Below, piece after piece: positions 46,814-63,813 of a stretch of DNA of 64,000 nt. The stretch is from a bacterium (GTDB taxonomy: Bacteria; Patescibacteriota; Saccharimonadia; Saccharimonadales; SZUA-47). The stretch spans positions 101 through 64,100 of the forward strand of contig JAUIBQ010000002.1 in assembly GCA_030427445.1 (NCBI GenBank), written 5' to 3'. Position 1 is the stretch's first letter. Every line of letters begins with the position of its first letter. The notes under the pieces are model-generated. The model was not told the DNA's origin, did not search any database, and worked only from the letters and a program-made list of their open reading frames with translations. The translations under genes were made by a program, and so were the position numbers.

Positions 46814-46914
46814 GTCTGTAAATCAGTTTTAGCTATAGGAACAGGGGAGGTACTTTACTAAATTAAAAACCCGGTTGTTACGCCGGGTTTAGTTCGCTAA
46901 TCGTATATAACCAA

Positions 46915-47343
46915 CTAGACGACGTTATCAACGCTGTTCGCTGTACCGAGTACGAATCGAACGATAACTTGCGCTAACGCAACTACTACAAGGCCGATAA
47001 CCGCATAAAGGATGGTGTTCTTAGCACCAGATACGCTGTCTGATGAACCTTGGGAAGTGATGTATTTCACGCCACCTACCATAATCATGACAACAGAAAT
47101 GATACCAATAATCCACGAGAATAGGTTAATCGCATCAATAACTAGTTGGTTAACATTGTTTCGACCTGCGTCAGTCGCTGTGCCACCGCTACAGGTAGCA
47201 TTAAGATTGAGCTGAGACCCTTTACAAAGTCCTTCTTCTGTATTGTTCTGAGCTACAGCAACTGTCACAGGCACAAGTGGTGCGCCGAAGGTAGCAAGGC
47301 TCAAAATCGCGGTCATCATAAATGTTTTAATTTTTTGGATCAT
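46915..47343 (-). CDS. T4SS pilin-like protein, paralog 1 (signal peptide + variable Cys-pair ectodomain + conserved two-helix C-terminal domain)
   Basis: C-terminal IIGIISVVMIMVGGVKYITSQGSSDSVSGAKNTILYAVIGLVVVALAQVIVRFVLG shared by 7 tandem ORFs; VirB2/TrbC-like topology. Confidence 0.6.
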   Translation of the reverse strand: MIQKIKTFMMTAILSLATFGAPLVPVTVAVAQNNTEEGLCKGSQLNLNATCSGGTATDAGRNNVNQLVIDAINLFSWIIGIISVVMIMVGGVKYITSQGSSDSVSGAKNTILYAVIGLVVVALAQVIVRFVLGTANSVDNVV

Positions 47344-47439
47344 TATTATTTTCTCCTTTTATTAGAAAATACCTACATTTTCATGTGTTTACGCACTTAA
47401 GTGTATCTGGTTTTATGAAAAAATTCTAGTGTTTTAGCT

Positions 47440-47886
47440 TCAAGAATTAGCAATGTCTGCAGTAGTGCCGAGTACAAAGCGTACTATCAGTTGTGCTAGT
47501 GCTACTACTACGAGGCCGATGATAGCGTAGAGAATGGTGTTTTTCGCTGCAGTGACATTGCCTGAATCACCCTGAGAAGTGATGTACTTCACACCACCAA
47601 CCATGATCATAACGACTGCGATAATGCCAATCACAAGAGAGAAAAGGTCTATTGCGGTCGCGATAAGTTCTGAAATTTGCTCTTCAGCTATACCAAAATC
47701 TGAACCACAGTCCACAGCGTCTTCGTCTATGTTCGCACCTCGACATAAATTTTCTTGAATGTCCTGCGCTCCGACTTGCGGTGAAAGAAACGGCACAAAT
47801 AGTAGTCCTGTGACCATTAGCACCACAGCCGGGAAGTGTACAATCTTTGATGCGAGAAGCGCGAGTGAATGTGATGAATTAAACAT
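47440..47886 (-). CDS. T4SS pilin-like protein, paralog 2
   Basis: VIGIIAVVMIMVGGVKYITSQGDSGNVTAAKNTILYAIIGLVVVALAQLIVRFVLG; Cys pair LCRGANIDEDAVDC. Confidence 0.6.
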   Translation of the reverse strand: MFNSSHSLALLASKIVHFPAVVLMVTGLLFVPFLSPQVGAQDIQENLCRGANIDEDAVDCGSDFGIAEEQISELIATAIDLFSLVIGIIAVVMIMVGGVKYITSQGDSGNVTAAKNTILYAIIGLVVVALAQLIVRFVLGTTADIANS

Positions 47887-47904
47887 ACTAACCTTTCAAT
47901 TACT

Positions 47905-48312: not shown

Positions 48313-48322
48313 TATAAAACCC

Positions 48323-49014: not shown

Positions 49015-49015
49015 A

Positions 49016-49468
49016 TTACCCTCCCAGAGTCCTTCCTACATATGCAACAATTTGTGATGCAATAAGCACTATAGCGAAACCAATAGCAGCGTTTATAACT
49101 GTTTGGCGCGCTTTTGTAGCGTTGTCAGGATTGCCTTGAGATGTAATAAACTTAAACGAACCCCAGAAAATCATAACTAATGCTACGAATGTTGACGCCT
49201 TTAATAACCCTTCAAGGATGGTGATGCCTATCACTAAAGAAGTATTGACTTGCTCTTCTTCGTCGCCGTCACCTAAAGAAGGCTGACAATCCCCCTCTTC
49301 ACTTTCTGGTAAATAGTTATACCATGCAGGTATAGTGAGAAAGCTGTCTTGACACCTCACCGGTAGAGCATGGGCTTTCTGGGGAGCGGCATTGCTAGCG
49401 ATAGCCAATGCACTAAAAATAACTATCAAACTAACTGTCATCTTTAAAAATATAGTCTGCAGCTTCAT
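49016..49468 (-). CDS. T4SS pilin-like protein, paralog 6
   Basis: FVALVMIFWGSFKFITSQGNPDNATKARQTVINAAIGFAIVLIASQIV; Cys pair RCQD..DCQP. Start set to ATG 49468 (signal peptide MKLQTIFLKMTVSLIVIFSALAIASNA) because the longer ORF-track version overlaps paralog 7. Confidence 0.5.
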   Translation of the reverse strand: MKLQTIFLKMTVSLIVIFSALAIASNAAPQKAHALPVRCQDSFLTIPAWYNYLPESEEGDCQPSLGDGDEEEQVNTSLVIGITILEGLLKASTFVALVMIFWGSFKFITSQGNPDNATKARQTVINAAIGFAIVLIASQIVAYVGRTLGG

Positions 49469-49508
49469 TACAAATATCATATACCATTTATTAGCCAAAG
49501 ACCAAAGC

Positions 49509-50057
49509 CTAGAGCACTCCTCCTGGCACGAGGAAATTAAGTAAACCATACCCAAACACGAATAGTGCTAGTGCAACCAGAGCCCAAACGATACGTTTTT
49601 TAGCTGCAGCAACCGCCGCCGGATTATCGCGAGCCGACATATATTGATATCCAGCAAACATGACTGACGCGACTATCGCCATAATGGCTAAGGCAGACAA
49701 AAAGTTAATCGCAATTACTAGATAGTTAATGATCGTACAATTGTCTTTACTAAGAGCTACACCATTACCTGGCTCACAGTTATTTGGATCTGAGGCGTCA
49801 AAACCACTTACACCTTCTGTTTCGCTAACACACGCTCCATCTATAGAGCTAGTCCCGATTTGGCACTGACAATACTCTGCTGTAACTGCTCTTCCAGCAA
49901 CTACTTCTGTTTCTGTAGTCCATGTACCACCAGACGCTTTGCATGCTTCTTCATCAGCAGAGACTGTGGGTGGTGCTACAAAAAACAGAAAAACACCTGT
50001 TGCTAGAATCGCGACTATGAGTGAGTTGATTATATAAATTTTTATTTGATTAAGCAT
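49509..50057 (-). CDS. T4SS pilin-like protein, paralog 7 (largest, Cys-rich ectodomain; first gene of the pilin operon)
   Basis: FLSALAIMAIVASVMFAGYQYMSARDNPAAVAAAKKRIVWALVALALFVFGYGLLNF; seven Cys in ectodomain. Start set to ATG 50057 (RBS aaagg). Confidence 0.5.
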   Translation of the reverse strand: MLNQIKIYIINSLIVAILATGVFLFFVAPPTVSADEEACKASGGTWTTETEVVAGRAVTAEYCQCQIGTSSIDGACVSETEGVSGFDASDPNNCEPGNGVALSKDNCTIINYLVIAINFLSALAIMAIVASVMFAGYQYMSARDNPAAVAAAKKRIVWALVALALFVFGYGLLNFLVPGGVL

Positions 50058-50160
50058 TTTATTACCTTTATATTTTATAGTATACAAACATTTAATACTA
50101 TGTACAAAAATAGTATTTGTGTACATAGTACTTACGTTTTTAATATCAATGGTTTATTGG

Positions 50161-50166
50161 TATAAT
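50161..50166 (+). promoter_or_regulatory. TATAAT -10 box in divergent promoter region between pilin operon and T4SS operon
   Basis: ttattggTATAATtttactaattcaagggggcatcTTG; flanked by TGTACA-N16-TGTACA palindromes at 50099-50126. Confidence 0.4.
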
Positions 50167-50188
50167 TTTACTAATTCAAGGGGGCATC

Positions 50189-50821
50189 TTGGGCAAGGCA
50201 TTTATAATCAAATTCATCACTATATCAGTAGTGCTAGCATTACTAGTATTCGTGGGCACTATAGTATATAGATTTTTTTTCGATAAGGTGATGATTAATG
50301 AAAATAGCCTTGTTGTTACATCAAACAACAACGTAGAGTACATGACTCCAGACAACTGGAATGAACTTTACACGGGATCTACTGACTTAACCGTCGCGTA
50401 CTCGCCTAAGGAAGAGGATAGTTTAGAAAGCGCAGATGATATCCTAGGTTTTAGAGTAGAAAATAAAGCACCGACAAATTTTAGTTATACCAATCTCACT
50501 TCAAATGAAAAACAAATTGCAGAGACAAACCTAATAAATGACTACACTGATCCTGATTTTTTTGAGTATATATGTTCTGATCCCAGCAATATTTCCGCTA
50601 CGAAAGATGTACAAACTCTGGAGAATTTTGATTTGTCGTTTAGTATTAGCATGGACTGCAACAGAGAGTCTGAAAATGGAGTTTTGCCAAGTAAAATAAA
50701 TGCTGTTGCAGGAATAAAAGCTGGGACTGAGTACATTTTGTTTTATAGTGTAAGCGAAAAAACATATAAGAATAACGAGGTAGTTCTGGCAAAGATACTA
50801 AATTCGCTTAGCTACTTATAG
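50189..50821 (+). CDS. Hypothetical membrane-anchored protein, first gene of T4SS operon (TTG start)
   Basis: RBS aaggggg 5 nt upstream of TTG; N-terminal TM FIIKFITISVVLALLVFVGTIVY. Confidence 0.4.
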   Translation: MGKAFIIKFITISVVLALLVFVGTIVYRFFFDKVMINENSLVVTSNNNVEYMTPDNWNELYTGSTDLTVAYSPKEEDSLESADDILGFRVENKAPTNFSYTNLTSNEKQIAETNLINDYTDPDFFEYICSDPSNISATKDVQTLENFDLSFSISMDCNRESENGVLPSKINAVAGIKAGTEYILFYSVSEKTYKNNEVVLAKILNSLSYL

Positions 50822-50878
50822 ATACCTCTTATACCGATATGCCCTTAGTTAATAATATGCTAGTATTCACTCATAGAA

Positions 50879-53800
50879 ATGCAAAGAAATAAAAGCAAAG
50901 CCATCATCTTAAATAAAATTCGAGCACAACAATTGTTTGTAGTTGCTTATTTCATGATACTACTTATAAACATGCTCGGTTTGTTTAACGTAGGTCAGGT
51001 TAGGGCTGCTCCTTTCTATGAAAACATACAGACAGACTACACAGTGTACAACCTTCTAGTGGGCTTTTCTTACAGTTGTGGTGTTGATGGAGGCGATGAC
51101 AGAAGGATGAGTCTCGACGACATGAATGATGTCTACGATAACGACGAAGGCAACGACAACGCAGGATATGACGGAAACAATTATGAGTCAGATCCTGGTA
51201 AGAGAATAAACTTGGGCTTATCTACAAGTGGTTTTGGTGTCATTGATGGTATGGCAAGTTGTGACGAGATAGCGACAGAAGCAGTCACCAGAATTATGGA
51301 TTATTATGAAATTGACAATGACAGGCCAACTGATGCAGATGAAGCAAAATCATACATAATTAACTTCTTATCAGTGAGCGCAGGTGACACCAAGGAAGAC
51401 ATGATTGAGTACATTGAAAGTCTTGAAGGTGATGGACTAAAAGACGTCCTGGGAATCAACAGCACTATAGAACTAAGAAGTAATGCGTGGCGCAATTTTG
51501 TAGATACCATTACTGAACCGATGTTTGAAGAAATTGGTCAGAGCTTAGTCGATAACGTAACTGAGATTGACCTCGCTAACTGGATCGCACCAGCCTTAAA
51601 CTACTGCTTAGACTGGTCCGACACAGCACCTCAAAATAACGACGATATACGAATTGATTTATCTAGTACGGCTGGACTATATGGGTTTACTCCGGTAGAT
51701 GGCTATAGCGAAAGTAGGATGAGTGAAGTATTTTCTTCTTTTGATAAAGGAAGCGACGGAAAACTATTTGCAGGAAAATCTTGGGCTAGTATCGCTGATG
51801 GAGAGTTTTATTTTCTGTTTAGAGATTATGCTCGTTACCCATCTGAAAATAGTGGCGCTTTTCATGACGCCTATGAGGCATTTATAGATACAACAACAGC
51901 ATATCTTAGTGGAGGGTGGAGTTTGGTAGTGGGTCCTGACGACTCTGAAGAAGGGTATTTTTATCCTTTCGGTTATTCAAGTGAACTATTCTTTGACGAT
52001 GTACCTAGTGCTCGTTCACATAATGAAGGCTTCCGAAGAGGCGGTTTACTATCTTGCCAAAATATTGAGGAAAATGTTAGCAAGTTTGACGATGGTATGG
52101 AGGGAAAAGGAGACGGTAGAAACATTCAGGCTAAAGCACCTACCGCAGGTACGGGTGTGCCCCAGAATACAACTGGCAATGGAGGCGAAGCTGTCGCTGC
52201 TCAACCAAGCTGTGAGTCTCAAGGAGGAGCATTTAGTTTTATCCTTTGTCCAGCACTGGAGGCTATGGGAGACGGGTTTGTCTGGTTCGATCAGAGAATC
52301 GAAGATGCTCTTGTGGTTAATACTTCATATATTACAAACGACGGGACTCGCGATGCATGGAACAATTTTAGAAATATTGCCTATATATTACTTATTCCGA
52401 TAATGCTCGTGATGGTTATTGGCACAGCATTGAATTTCAATTTCCTAGATGCTTACACAGTCAAGCGTGCTCTTCCACGCTTATTTGCAGCGGTAATCTT
52501 TATAACACTTTCCTACAGTATCTGCCTCTTGATGATTGAGGTCACCAATGTCATAGGTGCAGGCACTAGAGGTCTAATATCCTCACCATTTGGCGGAACA
52601 GAAGCGTTAAGTCTAGAAAATATATTTAACCCTCCTGGGGCAGGCGGTACAGCTTTATATGGGTTAGCAATATTTGGTGGTATCGGCATAGCTGCGCTGT
52701 CGGGTGTGACCATTGGCTCATTGTTTGTCACAGTTGCGCTGGGGGCATTGGCGCTTTTGATAGTTTTTGTACTTTTGTATCTTCGCGAACTACTTATCAC
52801 TTTACTTGTCATTCTCGCACCACTCGCAATTGTTGCATGGATTTTTCCTGGCAATGATAAACCTTGGAAGTTTTGGTGGCAGGCATTTTCAAAAATGCTG
52901 TACTTTTTCCCGGTGGTCATCGCAGTAATAACATTCGGTAAGGCTTTTGCTTCAATCGTAGATGTGGTTGCTGGTGAAGACGGAAACGTCATAACAACCA
53001 TGATAAAAATAGTTGCATATGTAGGCCCATACTTCTTTATTCCGAAACTCTTTACTATGGCGGGTGGTGCATTGGGTAATATAGCTGGTATGGTGAACGA
53101 CAGAAGTAAAGGTGTCTTTGACAGAGGGCGTAAGGCTCGCGAAGGAATGAAAGCAAACCAGAGACAACAAATTAAGGCTGGCGGTGGAGGAGTTTTTGGG
53201 GTCGGAAAGAATAGTAGAATCGGAAAAGGTTTTGGGTCTATGGGAGCGGGTGCATACGGTATAGGTAAGTCTCTTTCTGATAACGGTGTCGCTGGATTAA
53301 GTAGAGGAAATATCACAGCAGCACGACGAGCAAACGAAGCTATTCATGGTAAAAAGATGCTTGACGATGATCATGATATGGGTGTATGGGATGGAAATGA
53401 TACTGTTTCGGGTATCAGCTCTGATTTAATGACGGGTAATGTCACTGGTTTAGCTCTACAACTGTCGAGAGCTCATGGCTTAAGCGAGAGTGATGCCATG
53501 GCGGAGGCTCGAGGAATGGTATCACAGTTTAGAAGAAACTCAGGACAGGGACTTGAGAATGCATTTTCTCGTATTGGCGGTATGGAAGGTGCCGAACTAC
53601 GAACTGCTGTTGCACAAGTCCAAACAGCTAGAGGAAAGTACTCTGACGATATTTTATCAAGACATCTTGTTGAAAAAGCAATGGCAGGAGGAACTTACTA
53701 TAAAAACTCTGGTGAAGCTTGGCATGCAGCAGGTCTTGCAACAGAAGGCAACGAAAATGCTGTTGCCTCAATGAACGTGACGGGCAGAAAAGCTCTTATT

Positions 53801-54412
53801 GGTGCGGGACAAATTATAGATGGGGGTGCGGGATTTGGCACAACAAGAGGGGAGATGCTAACTGCTGCCTCTGCTGGAGGGGAGAGGAGTTTCGATGAAA
53901 TATCTCAGTCACAGCGCAGGTACGAAACTGCAGCAATGGAGTCAAAGTCTATGCAATCTCTCCTACATGAACAAATGAAGGCTGGCAACTACGACAAAGT
54001 TGCGAGCTTCTTGCGAACGAATATATCTGAAGCCTATGAGTCAGGCGATCAGAGACGTATTGAACAGGCTGTTGCTGTTGCAGAGCAGGCGCATGTGATA
54101 GCAAAAAACGCTAGTCCAGCAGCAGACAGAGCAGTGTCTGAAGTCATGGACATGCCAGTTTATGTAGGCATGTCGTCCGCTAATGCAAACAGCCCATTCA
54201 ATCGGGACCCTACGGGAAGACGCATATTGTCCGCTCAGGAACGTGATGCACCAACAGTAAGGCAAGAAACTCATCGTCTGGGTAGAGATTCTGGTACATA
54301 CCAAGACATTCAAAGACAATATACAGAGGCCGAATATCAAGGTCAATCTCAAATTATGGGAAGAACCCCTGATGTAGGAGCAAGTACACCAGGACCCACT
54401 GAAGGACTTTAA
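50879..54412 (+). CDS. Giant polytopic membrane protein, VirB6/TrbL-like channel component with large extracytoplasmic N- and C-terminal regions
   Basis: Signal/TM at N-terminus, ~450-aa acidic ectodomain, central block of >=6 TM helices, Gly-rich C-terminal ~400 aa. Confidence 0.45.
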   Translation: MQRNKSKAIILNKIRAQQLFVVAYFMILLINMLGLFNVGQVRAAPFYENIQTDYTVYNLLVGFSYSCGVDGGDDRRMSLDDMNDVYDNDEGNDNAGYDGNNYESDPGKRINLGLSTSGFGVIDGMASCDEIATEAVTRIMDYYEIDNDRPTDADEAKSYIINFLSVSAGDTKEDMIEYIESLEGDGLKDVLGINSTIELRSNAWRNFVDTITEPMFEEIGQSLVDNVTEIDLANWIAPALNYCLDWSDTAPQNNDDIRIDLSSTAGLYGFTPVDGYSESRMSEVFSSFDKGSDGKLFAGKSWASIADGEFYFLFRDYARYPSENSGAFHDAYEAFIDTTTAYLSGGWSLVVGPDDSEEGYFYPFGYSSELFFDDVPSARSHNEGFRRGGLLSCQNIEENVSKFDDGMEGKGDGRNIQAKAPTAGTGVPQNTTGNGGEAVAAQPSCESQGGAFSFILCPALEAMGDGFVWFDQRIEDALVVNTSYITNDGTRDAWNNFRNIAYILLIPIMLVMVIGTALNFNFLDAYTVKRALPRLFAAVIFITLSYSICLLMIEVTNVIGAGTRGLISSPFGGTEALSLENIFNPPGAGGTALYGLAIFGGIGIAALSGVTIGSLFVTVALGALALLIVFVLLYLRELLITLLVILAPLAIVAWIFPGNDKPWKFWWQAFSKMLYFFPVVIAVITFGKAFASIVDVVAGEDGNVITTMIKIVAYVGPYFFIPKLFTMAGGALGNIAGMVNDRSKGVFDRGRKAREGMKANQRQQIKAGGGGVFGVGKNSRIGKGFGSMGAGAYGIGKSLSDNGVAGLSRGNITAARRANEAIHGKKMLDDDHDMGVWDGNDTVSGISSDLMTGNVTGLALQLSRAHGLSESDAMAEARGMVSQFRRNSGQGLENAFSRIGGMEGAELRTAVAQVQTARGKYSDDILSRHLVEKAMAGGTYYKNSGEAWHAAGLATEGNENAVASMNVTGRKALIGAGQIIDGGAGFGTTRGEMLTAASAGGERSFDEISQSQRRYETAAMESKSMQSLLHEQMKAGNYDKVASFLRTNISEAYESGDQRRIEQAVAVAEQAHVIAKNASPAADRAVSEVMDMPVYVGMSSANANSPFNRDPTGRRILSAQERDAPTVRQETHRLGRDSGTYQDIQRQYTEAEYQGQSQIMGRTPDVGASTPGPTEGL

Positions 54413-54449
54413 GGAAAATTACGTAAAACTGTTATAATACTAGTGTTTT

Positions 54450-55607
54450 ATGGCCGTTTATAAAGTACCACAAGATGTCGAGGCAGAGGACAAGTTTTTA
54501 GGTCCTTTGACGTTCAAGCAGTTTCTCTTTTTCGGAGGAGTGTTAATCTTTGGATACATCACATTTCTTACAGCAACTAAGGTGGTGTTTCTTGCTCCGG
54601 TTTTCGCTATCCCTACGCTCGTTTTTGCCGTGCTTGCGACACCCTGGAGCAAAGACCAGCCGACGGAAGTGTTCTTAGGTGCTCGCTTCCGGTTTTTCTT
54701 CAAACCACGCAAGCGTATCTGGGACCAGACAGGCATCAAAGACTTAGTCAAAATCACCGTGCCAAAACGTGAAGCTCATGTGTATTCAGACGGCCTCTCA
54801 CAAGGTGAGGTGAGAAAACGCTTTGGTGCGTTAGCAACGATGGTAGACAGCCGTGGCTGGGCTGTAAAGAGCGTTCCGGGACTTTCACAAGTCAACGTAG
54901 CAGAGCAGAGTGACCGACTTGTCGAAGCTCCTCAGCAAGCTCCAAGTCAAAACGAAGCGATTTTAGCGCAGACTGAAGATGTGCTTGATGAAGACACCGG
55001 TGTCGTCGGAAAAAGTCTCGACAACATGATCGCTCAGTCAGAGCAAAAACATAAAAGTGAAACTCTGAAAATGATTCAACAAGCCCGTCAGGGTGGTGGG
55101 GGAGATACGAGTGCACCTAGCTTAAGCCCAGCACAAAAAAATAACACTGCCAAACCTAAAGCTGACCAGAACTCTCAAGATTTCTGGTTTATGCATCAGC
55201 AAAACGGCCAGGGTGGGCAAGCAGCCCCAGACCCTTCGCTCGCAACATTTAGCAACTCAACTGTTGTGTCTCCTGGAAGCACCACTCAACAAACCACAAC
55301 TCAGTCTGTTAAAGACGACCCCGTAGATGAGCAAGCAGTGTTGGATAAAATCCACGAAAAAGAGCGTAGAGACGCACTGCAGACACATTCACATCATGGC
55401 AAAGTAGTAAACCCGGACGGCACTGTACCTCAACAAAACGAAAGCCAAACAACAGAAGAAAAAAAGGATAAGCAAAACGTGACTACTCCTGTTAATCCTG
55501 ATATACTGAACCTAGCATCTAACAGAGATTTGAACGTTGCTACGATCCAGAGGCAAGCGAATAAAAAAGACGACGGCCAAGACGAAGTCGTGATTTCGCT
55601 TCACTAG
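54450..55607 (+). CDS. PrgI-family (VirB3-like) T4SS protein with long low-complexity C-terminal extension
   Basis: N-terminus MAVYKVPQDVEAEDKFLGPLTFKQFLFFGGVLIFGYITFL + second TM matches PrgI family hallmark (VP.D...EDK...G.LT..Q + 2 TM). Confidence 0.55.
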   Translation: MAVYKVPQDVEAEDKFLGPLTFKQFLFFGGVLIFGYITFLTATKVVFLAPVFAIPTLVFAVLATPWSKDQPTEVFLGARFRFFFKPRKRIWDQTGIKDLVKITVPKREAHVYSDGLSQGEVRKRFGALATMVDSRGWAVKSVPGLSQVNVAEQSDRLVEAPQQAPSQNEAILAQTEDVLDEDTGVVGKSLDNMIAQSEQKHKSETLKMIQQARQGGGGDTSAPSLSPAQKNNTAKPKADQNSQDFWFMHQQNGQGGQAAPDPSLATFSNSTVVSPGSTTQQTTTQSVKDDPVDEQAVLDKIHEKERRDALQTHSHHGKVVNPDGTVPQQNESQTTEEKKDKQNVTTPVNPDILNLASNRDLNVATIQRQANKKDDGQDEVVISLH

Positions 55608-55677
55608 TATCAAAACTGATTCAAACGTTAGAATCAGTTTTGAAGTAAGGGTGGGAGACCAGTAAATACACGAAAAT

Positions 55678-56484
55678 ATGCAGCCGCAAAACCAATATCC
55701 TAATCAACCTGCTGGCATGCCTGGAAACCCAGGTCAGCCTGTTGCTCAGTCGCCAAAAACCAACCCAAATAGCACACAAAACACGTTGCAGATTGCAGAA
55801 ATCCGTGACGGAATCGTCATCATGAATGACGGTAGTTTCCGAGCTGTAGTCGCGTGTCAGAGCATCAACTTTGACCTCATGAGTCCTGAAGAGCGTGAGG
55901 CTGTTGAGTACAGTTATCAAGGATTTTTAAACTCGCTTTATTTTCCAGTACAAATATTTGTCAGAAGTCAGAAAGTAGATATCCGACCATACATTGAAAA
56001 GTTGGACAAAATCCGCTCAGAGCATGACAACATGCTTTTAGCACTTTTAATGGAGGACTACATTGGCTTTATGTCTTCACTCGCACAAGAAACAAACATT
56101 ATGGATAAAAAATTCTATGTTGTCATCCCGTATTTCAAGTCAGTAGACGGTCAACAGCTAGTAGAGCAGAGTAAGGGCTTTTTCCAGAGTTTTATGGGTA
56201 AAAAAGAGGAAAAGGTTGTGATCAACGAGCAAGACCTTGAAAAAGGTAAGGCAGAGCTTAGGAATCGCATCCAGGCAATTATGGCCGGACTCCAGCAATG
56301 TGGAGTGCAGTCCGTACCTCTTGATACACAAGAATTGATTGAACTTTACTACGATGCGTATAACCCAGATACTGCGACACGCCAGCAGATTACACGATTT
56401 GACGGCATGCTCAACACTGACGTCATCGAAAAAGGGCAGGGCGATGCAGCTCAACCGCAACTAGATAAGGAATTGGGTAGTTAG
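55678..56484 (+). CDS. VirB4/TrbE N-terminal domain-like protein (separate ORF) with Pro/Gln-rich leader
   Basis: IAEIRDGIVIMNDGSFRAVVACQSINFDLMSPEEREAVEYSYQGFLNSL resembles the start of CagE/TrbE/VirB4 N-domain; stop TAG 2 nt before GTG of the ATPase ORF. Confidence 0.45.
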   Translation: MQPQNQYPNQPAGMPGNPGQPVAQSPKTNPNSTQNTLQIAEIRDGIVIMNDGSFRAVVACQSINFDLMSPEEREAVEYSYQGFLNSLYFPVQIFVRSQKVDIRPYIEKLDKIRSEHDNMLLALLMEDYIGFMSSLAQETNIMDKKFYVVIPYFKSVDGQQLVEQSKGFFQSFMGKKEEKVVINEQDLEKGKAELRNRIQAIMAGLQQCGVQSVPLDTQELIELYYDAYNPDTATRQQITRFDGMLNTDVIEKGQGDAAQPQLDKELGS

Positions 56485-56486
56485 TC

Positions 56487-58403
56487 GTGGGATTATTCGG
56501 AGGAAAACCAAAACTCGATCCAGTTGCTCAAGCACAGCTTCAGCAAGCCCAGGAGCAAATGGAGGTACAGGCAGCATTTCAAAAAGGCGTGACTGCACTT
56601 CGGGACTTCATCGCACCGGCAAGCCTAGAGTTTGAAAGTTCGATGTTTAAGATCGGCACGCGGCTCGCGCGCACCTATTTCGTGTACGGCTACCCTCGGC
56701 AAATTTATACAGGCTGGCTTTCTAGTATGATCAATCTCGATGAGGTGATCGATATTTCAATGTTTATCTACCCGGTTGAGAGTCAAGCAGTTCTCGAAAA
56801 CCTCCGTAAAAAAGTCGGTCAGCTCGAAGCAGGTATCCAAATCGACGCTGAAAAAGGTCGCGTGCGTGACCCACAAAAGCAAGCAGCTATCCAAGATGCT
56901 GAAGAGTTACGAGACAAGCTCCAGGTGGGCGAAGAGCGGTTTTTCCGCTTTGGTCTGTATTTCACTGTATACGCAAACAGTCCTGAGGAGATGGAGTTCG
57001 TTACGCACAAGGTTGAGAGTATGCTCGGTCAACAGCTTGTGTACTCAAAACCTGCAAGCGCACAACAAGAACAAGGTCTAAACTCGACAATCCCACAATT
57101 CACCGACCAGCTACAAATCCGCCGTAACATGAACACAGGAGCTATCAGCACGAGCTTCCCATTCACGAGCTCTGATCTATCTCAAGAAAACGGCATTCTC
57201 TACGGTATCAACATGCACAACTCAGGCCTTGTGATCTTTGACCGTTTCAGCCTTGAGAACGGCAACTCTGTTGTCTTCGCGAAGTCAGGCGCTGGTAAAA
57301 GCTTTACCGTGAAGCTCGAAGCGCTTCGAAGCATGATGTTTGGCACTGAAGTGTTTATTATCGACCCAGAAAACGAATACCAGAGAATGGCGGAAGCTGT
57401 AGGCGGCGCGTATGTACGACTAAGCCTAAACTCCACAACACGAATCAATCCGTTTGACTTGCCGCAAGTCGTAGACGGGGAAGAGGCAGACAACGCGCTG
57501 CGAAGCAACCTCATCACCCTCCACGGACTTCTTCGTCTCATGATGGGTGGTGCACAAGCGCAAATGGCAGGCCAACAAGGCGCAATGATGGCGCCAGCAC
57601 TCAGTCCAGTCGAAGAATCAGATCTTGACCAAGCTCTCATCGAAACCTACGCAAAAGTCGGGATTACAAATGACCCATTAACTCATAAATCTCAGCCGCC
57701 AACTATCGCTGATCTCTACGATACACTCCTCCACATGGGAGGCACCGGACCGCAGCTAGCGCAACGACTGCGAAAGTACACCACAGGTACATTTGCCGGT
57801 ATCTTTTCACAGCAAAGCAACGTAAATATCAACAACCCGTTGGTGGTATTTAATATTCGTGACCTTGAGGATGAGCTTCGACCAGTCGCAATGTACATTG
57901 TCCTAAACTACATCTGGAACAAAACAAAATCTGACCAAAAGAAACGTTTGCTTGTTGTTGATGAAGCGTGGCAACTAATGAAATACGAAGATTCGGCAAA
58001 CTTTATGTTCTCTCTTGCGAAGCGTGCTCGTAAATACAACCTTGGCATCACAACCATTACGCAAGACGTCGAAGACTTTATGGGCTCTCGTATGGGGCGT
58101 GCTATCGTCGCCAACTCTAGCATGCAGCTTCTACTAAAGCAGTCGGCATCGGCGGTTGATGTACTTAGTGACGTCTTTAAGCTGACGAGTGAGGAGAAGA
58201 AGCGTCTTAGTCAGTTCCCAGTGGGTCAAGGCCTGTTCTTTGCTGGTCAAAACCATGTGCACATCCAAATAGTTCCTAGCCAGACAGAGGCTTCTCTTAT
58301 CACGACCAATCCAGAACAGGTGAAGCAGCTCGAGCAGCAGCAACAAAATCAGCAAGTCGACCTTAATCAAACAGGATATAATGATACTGTGAATCTACGA
58401 TAG
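56487..58403 (+). CDS. virB4: VirB4/TrbE/PrgJ-family T4SS ATPase (C-terminal part)
   Basis: Walker A VFAKSGAGKSFTVK, Walker B RLLVVDEAWQLM, motif ITQDVEDF; GTG start. Confidence 0.8.
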   Translation: MGLFGGKPKLDPVAQAQLQQAQEQMEVQAAFQKGVTALRDFIAPASLEFESSMFKIGTRLARTYFVYGYPRQIYTGWLSSMINLDEVIDISMFIYPVESQAVLENLRKKVGQLEAGIQIDAEKGRVRDPQKQAAIQDAEELRDKLQVGEERFFRFGLYFTVYANSPEEMEFVTHKVESMLGQQLVYSKPASAQQEQGLNSTIPQFTDQLQIRRNMNTGAISTSFPFTSSDLSQENGILYGINMHNSGLVIFDRFSLENGNSVVFAKSGAGKSFTVKLEALRSMMFGTEVFIIDPENEYQRMAEAVGGAYVRLSLNSTTRINPFDLPQVVDGEEADNALRSNLITLHGLLRLMMGGAQAQMAGQQGAMMAPALSPVEESDLDQALIETYAKVGITNDPLTHKSQPPTIADLYDTLLHMGGTGPQLAQRLRKYTTGTFAGIFSQQSNVNINNPLVVFNIRDLEDELRPVAMYIVLNYIWNKTKSDQKKRLLVVDEAWQLMKYEDSANFMFSLAKRARKYNLGITTITQDVEDFMGSRMGRAIVANSSMQLLLKQSASAVDVLSDVFKLTSEEKKRLSQFPVGQGLFFAGQNHVHIQIVPSQTEASLITTNPEQVKQLEQQQQNQQVDLNQTGYNDTVNLR

Positions 58404-58430
58404 GTATGAGAGGGCGCGCGTAAAAACAAA

Positions 58431-61400
58431 ATGTATCCAGGACCAGGTTCAGTTATAACACCAGGAGGGTCTAGTACAGGTCCTGATAATGACCCGAGAA
58501 ATCCAGTCGCTAAACCTTGGAGTGATGAAGAAATCGCTAAAGGCGTTCAACAACTAGAAGATCATGCAAATGATCCAAAAAACGCTACTAAAAATTCCCA
58601 GTCTGCGGCTAAGGGTGAATCAAACACCTCTCCGCATAAGGGGAATGAAAGTTCAGCTCTTGATGAAGAAAAAGGTAAGTTTAGGACTTCTTTAAGCGAC
58701 AAGCTTCGTCAGGATAATTCTTTAGTTGGCCTCGCAAAGCGACACAGAGCACGACTTGCTTTGGCCAGTGCAACTTTTGGAGTTGCTGGACTAATGGTTG
58801 GTGGTTTTATTGCTGCTCCAAGTTTTATACTGTCTCACATAAGCACCCTTATTACTGACAAGACAAGCGAGCTTCAAGTTAATAGTCAAGCAAAGTATCG
58901 CCGTTCGAAATTCGCTAGTTTCACTGACAGATTTACAATAGACGGCAGAAGATCTGGTGCGCTCATTGCAGAAATGAAGAAATTCGGCTATAAGATCGAC
59001 GTTAAAAATGGTACATTCCAAGCACCAGGTGGCTCATCAAAACCACTAGCGGAAGCTGGCGAAGAATTCTCAGAATTTATGGACCAACGCTACAAAATTT
59101 TTGGTGTACCGACACGTTCGCAGACATGGAAAACAAAACGTACTGATGCGCTTTTTAATAGGCATAATGTCGTGCGGTCATCTTCCGTGACATCTAAACC
59201 AGGCGATCTAGAAGACCCAGAGATACAGATGAACAAAACTCAGAATAATTCAATTAATGAGGGTAGCGAGATTGATACAAGCATAGATGAGTCTCCGGCA
59301 AAGAGAGATACTGACTCCGGGAATGAAAATATAGATAGCGATAATGAGAGCTATAATCAAGCTAATGATGAAGCGGCTGAAGCATTGGTACCAGAGGATA
59401 ATGTGTTTAGGCAAGCTGCTGATGATCTTGCCGATGGAGTAAGTATTAATGAACTTGGCGGGGTTGGACCTATCGGTGATGAGCTTGATCTTGGCTATGG
59501 CCCAAATCTCGTAAAAGCAGAGGTGAGAAGGAGTCTTCTTAGTCCCGGTGGGGCAGCTGCCGGAGCTGTTACCATTGCTAAGTCTGCACTTTTACCTGCA
59601 GATATAGCCGACAAAGCATGTACCGCAAATTCACGTCTCGATATGGCGGTAAAAGTGGCGAGAGCTGCTACAAGCGTCAAAATGATGCGCGCAGCTTTGG
59701 TGTTTGTAAGTGCAGATGATGGACAAAGAAGACAGGAAGCATCATTTGATTTAATGATGCAGATAGTTAAGCGAGTGATGTTGAGTGATAAAGCTATGGG
59801 AAATTTTGCTAATTCGGCAGGCTTTCAGTTTGCAAGTAATGGCTCTTTTAGTAGGTCAGCGCTGGAGAATCAGCCTTCTAAATTTAATACTTCTGGAAAG
59901 CTTTCTGCATTTTGGGGTGCCGTACGTAGTGCGACCGGAAAGATACCAGGATGTAGCGTATTGGGAAATACGGCATTTCAAATAGGTCTTGGGATTGGTG
60001 CGGTAGCATTGTCGATAGCGGTTCCAGGATCTGGCGCCGCTGCAGGCACAGGGGTTAAAACAGCACTACAAACTGCTGTACAGGGATTTTTTACAAAAAA
60101 AGCTCTGACTGGTATACTTGCGGGGCTGATAATTGATTACAGTTTTGAAGAAATACTGAACTTAACTACGTTATATGTGCAGAAACAACTCACTATGGCA
60201 ATCACAGGACAAGAGACTGGGGGCATGTATTCGAGTCTTTTATTCTCAGGAGCGGGAGTTCTTACTAAACAGAGATTCTTAAATGCTGGACAGGTACCCG
60301 CGACAGCCACACAATACGCACAAGCACGAGACATATTCCTAGCTGAGAAACGTGAAGAATCTAAAAATAAATCACTTGCTCAAAGATTATTTGATTTCTC
60401 TGATTATGACTCTCTCGCATACCAAACCACAGCCACACTTGCTTTGAATAGCGGCACACCTTCTGCTGCGATATCAAATTTCGGCACCAGTGTAGCGAGC
60501 CTGCCTTCATTAATGACAAATACCGTTACATCACTAACAACCGGCCGCGCATATGCTCAAGATTCTGATGAGCAATTAGCGTTCGACACAATTAGCATAA
60601 ACGGCACAGAATACGCGACAGATCCATCGGGTAATCTTCTCACGATCATGCGTGACGATATAAGCAGTATAGATGTTGATGAGAACCTTCAAGAATTAGA
60701 AGACGAAGGACATATAAGCAGTGAAGCTACAGGCTACGAACCAAAAAGTAGCGAGTTTACTACTTTTATGGAGTTATGTATAGACTCTGTCGATCAAATA
60801 AGCGCCATGGAAGAGGGAGAAGATTGTGCTGGCACAAAAACATTAACTAAGAAATTCTATGCGCATCTAGCATATTTAGACTCGATTGACTTCATAGATA
60901 GCTCACTGTTCTCGAACGAAATCAGTAGCTATGGCAGTGGCAGTAGTACACAACCAACTAACGCACCGAATGCATACTCAGTATCTGCGATTGAACCGGC
61001 GGAGGGATTGATACAAGGCACAAGTATCGAAGCACAGGACACAAGCAATATGGAATGCCCTATAAGTGACACCGTGCAAGACTTAGGCATAGAAACTGAG
61101 GCCTATGTAAAAGGAGTGAGGTACAGTGTTAGACTGTGCGCAGTACATGGTATTCGCATAAATGTCCTTATTGCTAAACAACTTGATGACATGTTAAATG
61201 AAATGGCTGACGAAGGCTATACCGTACGTGGAAGCGGTGGCTTTAGGGATCACGCAAGCCAAGTAGCAGGGTATGCTGGTGGCGCAGGGGCAGGGACGTT
61301 TGCAAAACCAGGATATTCAAATCACCAATTCGGACTGGCTATCGACTTCAGTTGTCAAGGACAAGGACAAAGTTACACAGCTGGTACGGGTAGATATCGA

Positions 61401-61568
61401 GATAGCTTCTTGCAAAACCTTAGTCAGTACCCTTGCCTGGAGTGGTTATCCAGAAATTCACCTCGCTATGGACTTCTTAACTCGTGTGTAGCCCAGGGGT
61501 CTCAAGGTGAAATTAGAGCAACTTCGGGTGGCTGTGAATGGTGGCATTTTTCACCTGATGGGAAATAA
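58431..61568 (+). CDS. Large T4SS-associated membrane protein with C-terminal peptidase M15 (VanY/D-Ala-D-Ala carboxypeptidase-like) cell-wall hydrolase domain
   Basis: C-terminus SNHQFGLAIDF (SxHxxGxAxD) and CEWWHF (ExxH) zinc-peptidase motifs; TM segments at ~110 aa and ~520-560 aa. Confidence 0.6.
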   Translation: MYPGPGSVITPGGSSTGPDNDPRNPVAKPWSDEEIAKGVQQLEDHANDPKNATKNSQSAAKGESNTSPHKGNESSALDEEKGKFRTSLSDKLRQDNSLVGLAKRHRARLALASATFGVAGLMVGGFIAAPSFILSHISTLITDKTSELQVNSQAKYRRSKFASFTDRFTIDGRRSGALIAEMKKFGYKIDVKNGTFQAPGGSSKPLAEAGEEFSEFMDQRYKIFGVPTRSQTWKTKRTDALFNRHNVVRSSSVTSKPGDLEDPEIQMNKTQNNSINEGSEIDTSIDESPAKRDTDSGNENIDSDNESYNQANDEAAEALVPEDNVFRQAADDLADGVSINELGGVGPIGDELDLGYGPNLVKAEVRRSLLSPGGAAAGAVTIAKSALLPADIADKACTANSRLDMAVKVARAATSVKMMRAALVFVSADDGQRRQEASFDLMMQIVKRVMLSDKAMGNFANSAGFQFASNGSFSRSALENQPSKFNTSGKLSAFWGAVRSATGKIPGCSVLGNTAFQIGLGIGAVALSIAVPGSGAAAGTGVKTALQTAVQGFFTKKALTGILAGLIIDYSFEEILNLTTLYVQKQLTMAITGQETGGMYSSLLFSGAGVLTKQRFLNAGQVPATATQYAQARDIFLAEKREESKNKSLAQRLFDFSDYDSLAYQTTATLALNSGTPSAAISNFGTSVASLPSLMTNTVTSLTTGRAYAQDSDEQLAFDTISINGTEYATDPSGNLLTIMRDDISSIDVDENLQELEDEGHISSEATGYEPKSSEFTTFMELCIDSVDQISAMEEGEDCAGTKTLTKKFYAHLAYLDSIDFIDSSLFSNEISSYGSGSSTQPTNAPNAYSVSAIEPAEGLIQGTSIEAQDTSNMECPISDTVQDLGIETEAYVKGVRYSVRLCAVHGIRINVLIAKQLDDMLNEMADEGYTVRGSGGFRDHASQVAGYAGGAGAGTFAKPGYSNHQFGLAIDFSCQGQGQSYTAGTGRYRDSFLQNLSQYPCLEWLSRNSPRYGLLNSCVAQGSQGEIRATSGGCEWWHFSPDGK

Positions 61569-61576
61569 AGAACTTT

Positions 61577-63109
61577 ATGACTAAAAAATCATTCCTACTC
61601 ACCTCGATTACGGCAATCATCATGACATTAACTGCGATACTTTTACAGTTTTCCATTGTGACTGCACAAGAAGAGGAGGAATGCACTGAGGCACAATTAC
61701 GAGCACAGGGAGTTATTGTGGTTTCTTGCAACCCTTTACCGGCAGAGAACTGCACAACTGTGGGTACTGTAAGCAGCAGAAACCCAGCCACTTCTGAGTA
61801 TTTATCTATTACTTATCCTGAAGCACTTGATAGCATCCCTGATTTGGCACAAAAAATTGATACTTTCATAGCTAGTAAGAATTCAACAACCCCATGGAAT
61901 GGACTAGGTTCCTTTATCATAGAAGAAAGTAAAAAGTACGACGTCAACCCTGTTTTTATAGTTGCCACGGGCAGGTCTGAAACTGGCTTCAGAGGGTCGA
62001 GTTCAAGCAGGTACAACTATTTTGGTATTAAAAACTCCAGCTCTACATATCGTCAATTCACAAGTGCAGAGGAAGGAATTGCATACTTTATTTCTACCAT
62101 ACCGGAATATTTAAGCGGAGAGAGATCAGGAGGAAGGTATCAAGGTATAAATACGGTATATGAGTACTCCTCAATACATCAAACTGGTAGCGTTGTTTAC
62201 CCAGGAGAGCCATTCGATCCTAACGATATCGATGAAAAGAAGGGGAACACTCAAGACTTATGGGACCCTGCAATGGCCGTGTATGTGAGCTGGGACGAAA
62301 ACGCTAACAACAGGCCTGAAGTAAACCCAAAATACAAAGGTAACGTATATAACCCGCTCAATTATTACAAACTAAATATTGAGACTTTTAATGGCATCCT
62401 TGGTTTAAACTTGCCTGATACACCTGGTGGAGTCACGGCTCAGTGTGGGTCTTTGACTGCTGGTGCATCTGGCTGGGACCTGCCAGGAGAAGGAGCGAAT
62501 CCTATGGTTTACTACTCCCAGAGAAGGTCTGGAGATGATACTGCTTTAAGTGCTGACGCATTACGTGAGGTTATTGGTAGGTCCTTTAATTATCCCTCGG
62601 GATATTTCGGCAACGACAATTATGGTCCAGGACCGATAGCGCATTGCGGATGCGGTCCGACATCGTGGGCAATGATTGTCAGTACGCTTACTGGTGAAGT
62701 TACGACACCTACCGAAGTAGCTGAATGGGCGAACGAGAATGGTTGGCAATCTGACGGTGATCCTTGCGGTGGATCTAATTGGTGGTGGAACTCCCAAGAA
62801 TCTTCCGAAGCGAAATGGAAAGTATCAGCAACCCCTATAACCATCTCGGATGCACCCGATGCATTACGCTCGGGCTCTTTAATACTGGTTTCTGCAGGAT
62901 CAGGACCATTCACAAGCGGAGGGCATCTTTTAGTGATGAGAGCTGTGACAGATGATGGGAAATTCTTATTTGCAGACCCTAATGACTATAGAGATACTAG
63001 ACAGGCAGCATTCAATGTGTTTAACGGCGAAAGTAAGAGTCGCACACCACTAAGTGAAGAGCAGTTTATAGGCAGTATAAAAGGGCTATGGGAGGTTAAG
63101 CCATTATGA
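61577..63109 (+). CDS. Secreted cell-wall hydrolase: glucosaminidase (FlgJ/Mannosyl-glycoprotein endo-beta-N-acetylglucosaminidase-like) + C39-like/CHAP-like cysteine peptidase domain
   Basis: Signal peptide; ATGRSETGFRGSSSSRYNYFGIK (glucosaminidase motif); CGPTSWAMIV ... GGHLLVMRAV (Cys/His peptidase_C39_2-like). Confidence 0.55.
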   Translation: MTKKSFLLTSITAIIMTLTAILLQFSIVTAQEEEECTEAQLRAQGVIVVSCNPLPAENCTTVGTVSSRNPATSEYLSITYPEALDSIPDLAQKIDTFIASKNSTTPWNGLGSFIIEESKKYDVNPVFIVATGRSETGFRGSSSSRYNYFGIKNSSSTYRQFTSAEEGIAYFISTIPEYLSGERSGGRYQGINTVYEYSSIHQTGSVVYPGEPFDPNDIDEKKGNTQDLWDPAMAVYVSWDENANNRPEVNPKYKGNVYNPLNYYKLNIETFNGILGLNLPDTPGGVTAQCGSLTAGASGWDLPGEGANPMVYYSQRRSGDDTALSADALREVIGRSFNYPSGYFGNDNYGPGPIAHCGCGPTSWAMIVSTLTGEVTTPTEVAEWANENGWQSDGDPCGGSNWWWNSQESSEAKWKVSATPITISDAPDALRSGSLILVSAGSGPFTSGGHLLVMRAVTDDGKFLFADPNDYRDTRQAAFNVFNGESKSRTPLSEEQFIGSIKGLWEVKPL

Positions 63110-63813
63110 TGAACAGCAATAAGGCCAAGCTAATAGTTGCGGCCCTACTTTTTATTGGTGCAGTTGTTCTTTTTATACTTAGTTTTGTGAGCAACCCTGC
63201 AAACGATACAGCTGAAGAGCCAATCTTCGCAGACACTCCAGCACTGTTTAGTGGCGAGTATTCAGAATTACTAAATAGCCTTCCTACTGCGTCATTTGAA
63301 TTACTTAGAGAGGATGTAAAGTATCTTGGCGTAGAATCGTTTGATGAGTATAGAAAACTTGAGGAAGAAGTTATATTCTTCGTTAACGGAGAATCAATAA
63401 GCACTCAAAATGACACCATGTCGTTTAGCGGATACTTTGAGATTAATGAAGAAGAACCTGTACAAACAACAGTGGAGATTTTATCAAACAACCGTATTAA
63501 CGTCGTCTTCAATCAGCAGCTTATTGAGCTAGACCCAAACCAACTTCCATCAAACTCTCCAAGAAATAACTTTATATCTACATTACCAGAGCAAAGACCA
63601 GGCTATGACATAGAATACGATATTGATGCAGATAGCTTCATAGTTAGGCTGTATGAGTTGGATGCGCAAGAGGCCGCAGTGGATTATATATCAGCTAAAA
63701 TAGAAGACCCGAATTATTCAGAGAAAATTGAAATAATACCTCTTGGGTCAACGAATTTTGAGCGGTTTGAGAGTATTTATCCTACTAATGGCGCTGAGGT
63801 AGTAGGGCCTTAA
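63106..63813 (+). CDS. Hypothetical membrane-anchored protein (possible VirB8/PrgL-like periplasmic component), last gene of T4SS operon
   Basis: N-terminal TM LIVAALLFIGAVVLFILSF; 4-nt overlap with upstream gene. Confidence 0.35.
   Translation: MMNSNKAKLIVAALLFIGAVVLFILSFVSNPANDTAEEPIFADTPALFSGEYSELLNSLPTASFELLREDVKYLGVESFDEYRKLEEEVIFFVNGESISTQNDTMSFSGYFEINEEEPVQTTVEILSNNRINVVFNQQLIELDPNQLPSNSPRNNFISTLPEQRPGYDIEYDIDADSFIVRLYELDAQEAAVDYISAKIEDPNYSEKIEIIPLGSTNFERFESIYPTNGAEVVGP

Follow-up and report, generated by a model that had tools for sequence, protein, structure and literature searches.

A type IV secretion locus of the published Saccharibacteria type beside the replication origin region of a Saccharimonadales bacterium

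The locus and the systems closest to it

Wang et al. 2023 (PMC10633639) described genes SEML1_0006-0019 of ML1, the cultured Saccharibacteria epibiont Ca. Southlakia epibionticum, as an unusual type IV secretion system (T4SS), one which is closest to Gram-positive conjugative systems. Pilin genes lie inside this cluster and are essential, no coupling protein or relaxase was recognisable in it, and by transposon sequencing (Tn-seq) all genes of the cluster but one were essential for epibiotic growth (PMC10633639). We report on a corresponding locus in the genome of a Saccharimonadales bacterium (GenBank assembly GCA_030427445.1, contig JAUIBQ010000002.1, positions 101 to 64,100), a stretch of 64,000 nucleotides (nt) whose full length is called the window here. 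The locus is a 17-kb block (46915-63813) for which the map of open reading frames (ORFs) shows a minus-strand pilin array and a divergent plus-strand operon of eight ORFs. We consider it very probable that this is the resident, vertically inherited T4SS of Saccharibacteria (Saccharimonadales), an orthologue of SEML1_0004-0019, and that it serves the interface between epibiont and host. Its identity as a Saccharibacteria T4SS, taken separately, is close to certain; that it works as a pilus-bearing transport machine at the host interface we hold at little better than even.

Read from recF onward, the ML1 gene table lists two small exported proteins, a protein with GH73, lysozyme and Cys-proteinase domains, a protein of 1113 amino acids (aa) ending in a DD-peptidase fold, and VirB4; then a 293-aa protein, PrgI, a 998-aa "T4SS protein" and a non-essential NTF2-like protein of 278 aa; and finally a 1088-aa TrbL/VirB6-like protein, six pilins, hsp20, comFC and tRNA-Ser (PMC10633639). 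Compared by gene table, the locus of the window is the mirror image of SEML1_0004-0019, gene for gene, and the ML1 locus is like it in having no relaxase or coupling protein, in lying close to the origin and in its flanks. The two differ in four places. The window carries seven pilins as against six in ML1. A single polytopic protein of 1177 aa occupies the stretch between pilins and PrgI, where ML1 has proteins of 998 and 1088 aa that are separated by the NTF2-like one of 278 aa. At its head the operon has a 210-aa, tentatively PsbP-like protein of another type than that of ML1, and after the hydrolase there is one small transmembrane (TM) protein instead of two.

The system has also been placed in a wider frame. 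In a survey of 3,035 genomes, Quinonero-Coronel et al. 2025 found the Patescibacteria clade of VirB4 nested in the MPF_FATA class (PMC12102498). The Patescibacteria T4SSs of that survey have an adjacent TrsD, a VirB3 of PrgI type and arrays of 2-11 VirB2 genes, the arrays being frequent in Saccharimonadia; relaxases are rare among them, genes for type IV coupling proteins (T4CPs) lie mostly far from virB4, and the T4SS lies near dnaA/dnaN (PMC12102498). Our locus has the pilin array, the TrsD protein with a VirB4 that lacks its N-domain, and the proximity to dnaA/dnaN, and we see no substantial difference from the surveyed Patescibacteria clade. In a 2025 review the system figures as the known exception among Gram-positive T4SSs in having VirB2 pilins, with the speculation that it is a conduit for signals or uptake (PMC12857230). 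The locus is thus already known as the published Saccharibacteria T4SS (PMC10633639, PMC12102498, PMC12857230). Every interpretive point of a preliminary description of the window is in print already; the reading which that description gave is supported, and is not new.

Components and layout of the locus

The ORFs and coordinates of the preliminary description agree with the ORF map, except that it had spoken of nine ORFs in the plus-strand operon; eight were found, the number that it had itself listed. Its calls of seven VirB2-like pilin paralogs, a PrgI/VirB3-like protein, a VirB4 ATPase, a 1045-aa protein ending in an M15 peptidase, a hydrolase with glucosaminidase and C39-like domains and a closing TM protein all hold against the family models and predicted helices collected in Table 1, and its separate VirB4 N-domain is borne out at profile level. 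The T4SS call had been made to depend on likeness of the ORFs at 54450, 55678 and 56487 to VirB3/VirB4 families, and all three match such profiles, the one at 55678 weakly. All ORFs of the locus are intact and keep their catalytic motifs. No locus ORF matched the VirB9 or VirB10 families of Pfam or NCBIfam.

The VirB4 ATPase covers positions 168-734 of the 752 of model NF045971 (VirB4-like, CD1110 family) and also matches PF19044 (7e-26), AAA_10 (1e-12), the solved C-domain of VirB4 in PDB 4AG5 (E 3.8e-44) and TrwK (5e-5). Its Walker A motif AKSGAGKS (read in translation) and Walker B motif LLVVDE are both intact. Among the NCBIfam models for VirB4, that of CD1110 (Clostridioides) fits best, followed by the VirB4 of Mycoplasma integrative and conjugative elements (ICEs), and the best plasmid relatives, at 37% identity, belong to Bacillota and Actinomycetota. 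The preceding TrsD-like ORF gives matches, each of them below cut-off, to positions 2-104 of NF045971, to the TrsD model NF041427 and to the N-terminal portions of three further VirB4 models; the two ORFs thus tile one VirB4 model, which supports the TrsD-like ORF as the detached VirB4 N-domain at profile level. The PrgI gene lies one gene upstream of this pair. Taken together, the CD1110-family VirB4 above cut-off, PrgI, TrsD and the plasmid relatives support assignment to the Gram-positive MPF_FATA type, a call taken from family models and best plasmid matches.

The prototype of this class, plasmid pCF10 of Enterococcus faecalis, shares the core order PrgH (VirB6), PrgI, PrgJ (VirB4, CD1110 family), PrgK, PrgL, in which PrgK is a large membrane-anchored wall hydrolase and PrgL a small bitopic protein. 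Residues 221-772 of PrgJ align with our VirB4 at 24% identity over 550 residues (E 6e-42). The N-terminus of PrgJ had no BLASTP match to the TrsD-like ORF, and the two are linked by profile models only; PrgJ itself is one unsplit protein of 796 aa. Unlike the window, pCF10 has the coupling protein PcfC, the relaxase PcfG and the surface adhesins PrgB and PrgC, and no annotated pilin genes. PrgH and PrgK show no detectable similarity to proteins of the window, whose hydrolase domains (M15, GH73 with C39-like) differ from those of PrgK and TraG (SLT/CHAP).

Outside Patescibacteria, the closest VirB4 in the plasmid collection is encoded on a Pontibacillus sp. megaplasmid typed as non-mobilizable (NZ_CP062975, 9038-19030; 37% identity). 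The order there runs from a pair of pilin-like genes through a polytopic protein of 779 aa, a protein of VirB3 size (116 aa) and a TrsD-like protein of 274 aa (33% identical to that of the window, E 1e-33) to VirB4 and a peptidoglycan metalloendopeptidase of 1050 aa. The pilins of the window match the Pontibacillus pilin-like proteins, one of which is annotated as Mbov_0395 family, at E 1e-10 to 1e-7. The likeness extends to families of Mycoplasma ICEs, with 'Mbov_0395' as the pilin-like protein and 'Mbov_0397' as VirB4. Differences are that the Pontibacillus pilin genes are two and co-directional, as opposed to seven and divergent, and that its hydrolase, annotated as a DD-metalloendopeptidase family protein, has no BLASTP similarity to the 1045-aa M15 protein. 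A module of this kind with pilin-like genes suggests that VirB2-like pilins may not be unique to Patescibacteria among monoderms. The Pontibacillus genes conflict with the statement that Gram-positive T4SSs outside Patescibacteria lack VirB2-like pilins (PMC12857230).

All seven minus-strand ORFs between 46915 and 50126 exceed the gathering score of PF18895 (T4SS_pilin; E 4e-6 to 5e-16). They share a plan of a signal-like hydrophobic segment, missing from pilin 5, a variable stretch containing Cys, and a pair of hydrophobic helices that flank the conserved loop Y/F-I-T-S-Q-G, and they align with pilin 1 at 23-48% identity; the most divergent is pilin 7, which has a Cys-rich insert. The cut-off of the TrbC/VirB2 family is passed by pilin 4 and just missed by pilin 3, and NF045849 is matched weakly. 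A hidden Markov model (HMM) built from the seven found no eighth copy in the 64 kb.

The 1177-aa protein had been called VirB6-like, and the part of this call that stands is its position together with its six TM helices. Its topology comprises a signal/TM segment, an ectodomain of ~460 aa, the six helices at 500-694 and a cytoplasmic tail of ~480 aa. Similarity in sequence does not show the relationship: the protein has no Pfam or NCBIfam match, the TrbL family of Pfam matches 2 of 41 orthologues at E >= 2e-3, the family profile finds no match among PDB sequences, hhalign against PrgH gives E 0.07, and tblastn with the TM core finds nothing in the plasmid collection. To the positional equivalent of Pontibacillus the similarity is marginal, with hhalign giving E 2.7e-4 and a probability of 41%. 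A precomputed Pfam tag, PF19590, was not reproduced on rescanning and was discarded. For the ML1 counterparts SEML1_0011 and SEML1_0013, called T4SS protein and TrbL/VirB6, the published Foldseek scores are about 0.5 (PMC10633639).

The small bitopic proteins at the two ends of the operon have no Pfam or NCBIfam match either. Word-indexed homologue searches with the 1177-, 210- and 235-aa proteins returned only the queries themselves. A set of 1.84 billion representative proteins contains just 5 relatives of the 210-aa protein, all of them distant. Their alignment shows the TM helix and an ectodomain of ~170 aa with two invariant cysteines, and the sole PDB match of the family is PsbP 2XB3, over the full length (E 0.67); as a lead, the ectodomain may tentatively be regarded as PsbP/Mog1-like. 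The 235-aa protein has 4 clear homologues in 80 loci. It was joined by jackhmmer to the main family of small TM proteins, a link that hhalign traced to the TM helix alone; we therefore do not claim homology to that family.

SEML1_0012, the one non-essential gene of the ML1 locus, is listed with an NTF2-like domain whose best ECOD match is e4ec6D1 (PMC10633639). No counterpart of this gene was recognised in our locus. The structure 4EC6 is that of the VirB8-like protein TraM of pIP501. In contrast to the listing of SEML1_0012, the 2025 survey reports that it did not find a structural VirB8 homologue in ML1 (PMC12102498).

Downstream of VirB4, the family profile of the 1045-aa protein matches LdcB/VanY structures at E 8e-14, and the zinc motifs SNHQFGLAID and EWWH are intact; its N-terminal 850 aa have no PDB match, and hhalign shows no similarity of the family to PrgK. 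The 510-aa hydrolase keeps Cys359 (CGPT) and His450 and has an N-terminal signal/TM segment. Both genes stand directly after the VirB4 gene, which is where MPF_FATA systems encode their dedicated wall hydrolase, the VirB1 analogue.

Adjacent genes had been described as overlapping by 4 nt or lying 2-60 nt apart. The 4-nt overlap is there; spacing on the plus strand, however, runs from -4 to 70 nt, and the longest ORF calls of pil6 and pil7 overlap by 47 nt. The start of pil7 is probably the internal ATG at 50057, which is preceded by a Shine-Dalgarno-like AAAGG, and that of pil6 probably the internal ATG at 49438, as judged from the translation alone. With these later starts the 47-nt overlap disappears and an AT-rich divergent control region of 131 nt is left. 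As consensus matches only, it holds an extended -10 box TGGTATAAT at about 50159-50167 and the sequence AAGGGGG at 50179-50185 for the plus operon, and a promoter-like site at 50106-50079 for the minus strand. The TTG start proposed for the first membrane protein (50189) is credible and well supported by these predicted signals, with AAGGGGG as a strong predicted ribosome-binding site 4 nt upstream and the TGGTATAAT box before it. The public annotation of this gene begins at an internal ATG, giving 176 aa, and drops the N-terminal TM helix. GC content dips to 0.37 at 50001-52000, as against about 0.43-0.46 elsewhere; within the dip lie the promoter region between the operons, the gene of the 210-aa protein and that part of the 1177-aa gene which encodes the ectodomain, and it is in these parts that conservation of the locus is lowest.

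Table 1. Features of the locus and its boundaries in the window, with the evidence for each (bits are given against the cut-off of the model)
Feature	Coordinates	Strand	Basis
hsp20, conserved left boundary	46265..46759	+	PF00011 E 7.5e-19; adjoins pilin array in 27/39 loci and in ML1
Terminator-like hairpin after last pilin gene	46867..46890	-	8-bp stem, 5 G-C pairs, T tail, 25 nt downstream of pil1 stop; consensus match only
Pilin 1, VirB2-like, 142 aa	46915..47343	-	PF18895 E 2.7e-12, 47 bits vs 26.6; signal-like segment and two TM helices
Pilin 2, VirB2-like, 148 aa	47440..47886	-	PF18895 E 4.8e-16; nearest paralogue pilin 1, 48% identity
Pilin 3, 135 aa	47905..48312	-	PF18895 E 9.4e-16; TrbC E 3.9e-6
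Pilin 4, 134 aa	48323..48727	-	PF18895 E 9.1e-14; TrbC 28.1 bits vs 27.9
Pilin 5, 96 aa	48724..49014	-	PF18895 E 6e-14; two TM helices only, no N-terminal signal-like segment in ORF call
Pilin 6, longest ORF 179 aa (140 aa from likely start 49438)	49016..49555	-	PF18895 E 9.8e-8
Pilin 7, longest ORF 205 aa (182 aa from likely start 50057)	49509..50126	-	PF18895 E 4e-6, 27.2 bits vs 26.6
AT-rich divergent control region between operons	50058..50188	.	Promoter-like consensus matches only
Bitopic membrane protein, 210 aa, TTG start, head of plus operon	50189..50821	+	One TM helix, residues 4-22
Polytopic membrane protein, 1177 aa, VirB6 position	50879..54412	+	TM topology and gene position
PrgI/VirB3-like membrane protein, 385 aa, long low-complexity tail	54450..55607	+	PF12666 PrgI E 3.1e-12, 47.3 bits vs 27, residues 5-90
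TrsD-like protein, 268 aa, detached VirB4 N-terminal domain	55678..56484	+	Profile matches below cut-off
VirB4 ATPase, 638 aa, GTG start, without N-domain	56487..58403	+	NF045971 375 bits vs 325
Membrane protein, 1045 aa, C-terminal M15B (VanY/LdcB-like) peptidase	58431..61568	+	VanY E 1.2e-9, residues 910-1040
Secreted cell-wall hydrolase, 510 aa, GH73 glucosaminidase and C39-like/CHAP cysteine peptidase	61577..63109	+	PF01832 32.9 bits vs 30.2; PF13529 42.1 bits vs 24
Bitopic membrane protein, 235 aa, last operon gene, PrgL position of pCF10	63106..63813	+	One TM helix, residues 10-28
recF 3' end, conserved right boundary	63810..64000	-	dnaN and dnaA follow beyond window

Conservation among relatives and genomic context

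VirB4 relatives were confirmed in 447 cases in species-representative genomes, and loci were compared for the best 80 of these, with gene-order counts taken over loci that had enough flank. The best 80 are 82-89% identical in VirB4 and all come from Saccharibacteria or Patescibacteria metagenome-assembled genomes (MAGs). Synteny extends across the Saccharimonadales relatives, with the same gene order and flanks: comFC, hsp20, pilins (encoded on the other strand), polytopic protein, PrgI, TrsD, VirB4, hydrolases, TM proteins of ~200 aa, recF and dnaN. In 54 of 55 loci the next gene after the operon is recF, in opposite orientation, and the divergence of pilins and machinery is kept in 41 of 42 related species, 31 of which have six pilins and 4 of which have seven. 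The membrane protein after VirB4 measures ~800-1700 aa in relatives, mostly 800-1300, and the exported hydrolase behind it 400-900 aa.

Conservation is graded along the machine. Median identity is 84% for VirB4, 67% for the TrsD-like protein and 37% for PrgI (both in 39/39 loci), 34-48% for the pilins and 31% for the polytopic protein, which has orthologues in 38/39 loci and is conserved in its TM core only; counterparts of the last three operon genes can be detected in just 4-10 of 39 loci, and of the 210-aa gene in none (0/39). The drop in identity from cytoplasmic to surface parts is in keeping with a surface turned towards a host.

From species to species, the two hydrolase genes differ in their enzymatic ends, which are exchanged for one another. 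In the protein after VirB4, the N-terminal scaffold (~850 aa) is kept in 56 of 57 species, while the C-terminal 300 aa fall into a single M15-like cluster in 47 species and are replaced in ten others by a GDSL lipase (once together with M74), M23, EEP with GDPD, M14, alginate lyase, EEP with CHAP or EEP with tyrosine phosphatase, two species having a C-terminus that lacks a Pfam match. In the next gene the domain is a phage-tail lysozyme in 27 and a GDSL lipase in 11 of 48 species, and M23, Amidase_3, C39_2, NlpC/P60, CHAP or SLT in the remainder. Domains that cleave lipids, polysaccharides and phosphodiesters argue for action on the envelope of a host. No mention of this exchange was found in the available parts of PMC10633639, PMC12102498 and PMC12857230, the only texts searched for it.

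We regard as possible, though rather doubtful, the idea that the outer layer of an otherwise rigid machine is a host-range cassette in an arms race, with the T4SS drilling through a host-specific envelope and providing a pilin-lined uptake conduit. Such a cassette may consist of the seven pilins, the 210-aa protein, the polytopic ectodomain and the enzymatic ends of both hydrolase genes. By analogy, the T4SS may then act on the envelope of an Actinobacteria host like a phage tail tip, or like the LysA/LysB pair of mycobacteriophages.

The locus is resident and vertically inherited, as supported by the same flanks in 54 of 55 species, the absence of att-like repeats and a genome-like GC content. 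Core genes flank it, as had been described: hsp20 and a comFC-like gene upstream and recF downstream. On the public contig the same DNA (identity of the overlap was checked) runs on from the window into recF, dnaN and dnaA, so that the locus borders on the replication origin region. About 48 of the window's ORFs were scanned, including every ORF of at least 220 aa, and neither a relaxase, a VirD4/FtsK-type ATPase, VirB11 nor an integrase was among them; nor did the 1.2 kb and more past the window, occupied by recF, dnaN and dnaA, contain a relaxase or coupling protein. No direct att-like repeats flanking 46.9-63.8 kb were found, and GC content is that of the genome except in the dip at the divergent promoter and ectodomain region. 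The earlier conclusion of a resident, non-conjugative system, which would have had to yield to an ICE had mobility genes and att repeats appeared just outside the window, is therefore upheld. Its statement that relaxase, coupling protein and integrase are missing is right for the window and the DNA just beyond, but for the coupling protein it holds for the locus and window only.

Outside the locus, a stretch of 25 nt (44871-44895) repeats, at 84% identity, the D-arm/anticodon-arm portion (45045-45069) of tRNA-Ser(GGA). This partial copy lies 174 nt upstream of the tRNA, in an intergenic region of 580 nt that has no Rfam match. A reading of the repeat as an ICE attachment site was considered and rejected, as the tRNA belongs to the conserved backbone.

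The other sizeable ORFs of the window are housekeeping genes (sigma-70, DnaG, ArgRS, ValRS, GroEL, Mur ligase, TsaD, PGI, a sortase, a MacB-type ABC transporter, the ComFC-like protein and Hsp20). Genes for argininosuccinate synthase and an argininosuccinate-lyase-like (Lyase_1) protein adjoin ArgRS (12491-14955) in a group described as having no amino-acid biosynthesis, and may concern arginine/citrulline handling. A 592-aa ORF (31791-33569) shows an EF-hand-like calcium-binding loop near residue 430 as its sole family signal.

Proposed function and alternative explanations

This analysis shows the identities of the components, their synteny and conservation, and that mobility genes occur neither in the window nor next to it. 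Essentiality is taken from the literature on a cultured relative, and we infer the formation of a pilus, the target of the hydrolases and the nature and direction of the cargo. In the arrangement we propose, a hexameric VirB4 ATPase, its N-domain provided by the separate TrsD-like protein, would be tethered at the membrane by the PrgI/VirB3-like protein and would work with the large polytopic protein in the VirB6 position. This machinery would draw the VirB2-like pilins out of the membrane and build from them a filament or conduit at the surface. Peptidoglycan, either the cell's own or that of the host, would be opened by the M15 peptidase, which is anchored in the membrane, and by the glucosaminidase/cysteine peptidase, which is secreted. 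The T4SS would serve the epibiont-host interface through export of effectors or uptake of host material and, having neither relaxase nor coupling protein in its locus, would not be a conjugation machine.

One could instead see in the locus a decayed ICE, or the mating-pair-formation module of one, that is disappearing after the loss of its relaxase, its coupling protein and its integrase, given that its VirB4 family is named for conjugative elements (CD1110), that PrgI and TrsD are families of conjugation plasmids and that tRNA-Ser, with its 25-nt partial copy, lies about 1.8 kb from the pilin array. Yet the ORFs and their catalytic motifs are all intact, VirB4 keeps 82-89% identity across 80 or more species, at one site between hsp20/comFC and recF/dnaN, flanking repeats are missing, GC content is anomalous nowhere outside the promoter region, the orthologous genes of ML1 are essential (PMC10633639), and tRNA-Ser adjoins comFC in ML1 too and thus belongs to the conserved backbone (PMC10633639). 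We consider decay extremely improbable. Very unlikely, if a little less so, is a DNA-uptake machine comparable to the ComB T4SS of H. pylori or archaeal Ced, which would import host DNA for nucleotides or transformation. Like DNA importers, the locus has no relaxase or coupling protein; a comFC-like gene adjoins it, VirB4 matches CedB and CedD weakly (55 and 28 bits), and Saccharibacteria have natural competence and are unable to make nucleotides (PMC10633639). The Ced matches, however, are far below the cut-offs of 700 and 600 bits and are due to the shared P-loop. Competence of ML1 needs comEC and type IV pili (PMC12857230), and deletion of comEC ends competence and leaves viability unaffected, whereas the T4SS is essential (PMC12857230); comFC is non-essential in ML1 (PMC10633639).

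That the apparatus does no more than adhere or remodel the wall, with pilins as an attachment fibre or resident in the membrane, hydrolases for the cell's own wall and no transport, also seems unlikely to us, though of these three explanations it is the least so. Conjugative pili serve mainly for attachment (PMC12857230), the locus has no identifiable substrate, effector or coupling protein, and peptidoglycan hydrolases are plentiful there. A full core of VirB3, VirB4 and the protein in VirB6 position is nevertheless under strong conservation, Saccharibacteria already own type IV pili for adhesion (PMC10633639, PMC11623550), and the lipase, phosphodiesterase, alginate-lyase and phosphatase domains of sister species are ill-suited to growth of the own wall.

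Several points nevertheless weigh against a pilus-bearing transport system without coupling protein at the host interface, which is the reading that we prefer. What has been demonstrated in ML1 is essentiality alone, and no pilus has been observed. A VirD4-like gene may lie elsewhere in the genome, as most Patescibacteria genomes have one (PMC12102498). The VirB6 assignment of the 1177-aa protein is unsupported at the level of sequence. No VirB8-like component was identified in the locus: the PDB hint of the 210-aa family is to PsbP and not to VirB8, and for both small TM proteins the single-sequence AlphaFold2 (AF2) models fell short of usable quality, with predicted local distance difference test (pLDDT) values of 50 for the 210-aa and 41.5 for the 235-aa protein. 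The operon structure, finally, is deduced from spacing and from consensus matches for promoter and terminator, neither kind of match being above chance.

The importance of the system is recognised already (Cell 2023, Microbial Genomics 2025, FEMS Microbiology Reviews 2025), and the locus described here is one more, very typical, copy of it. Possibly useful to specialists are the exchange of hydrolase ends between species and the Bacillota megaplasmid module, which bears on the origin of the pilins. The T4SS of Saccharibacteria is the first for which essentiality to its own bacterium was demonstrated; it is also described as the sole reported T4SS of Gram-positive type with VirB2 pilins, and is a prime candidate for the means by which ultrasmall epibionts feed on their hosts.

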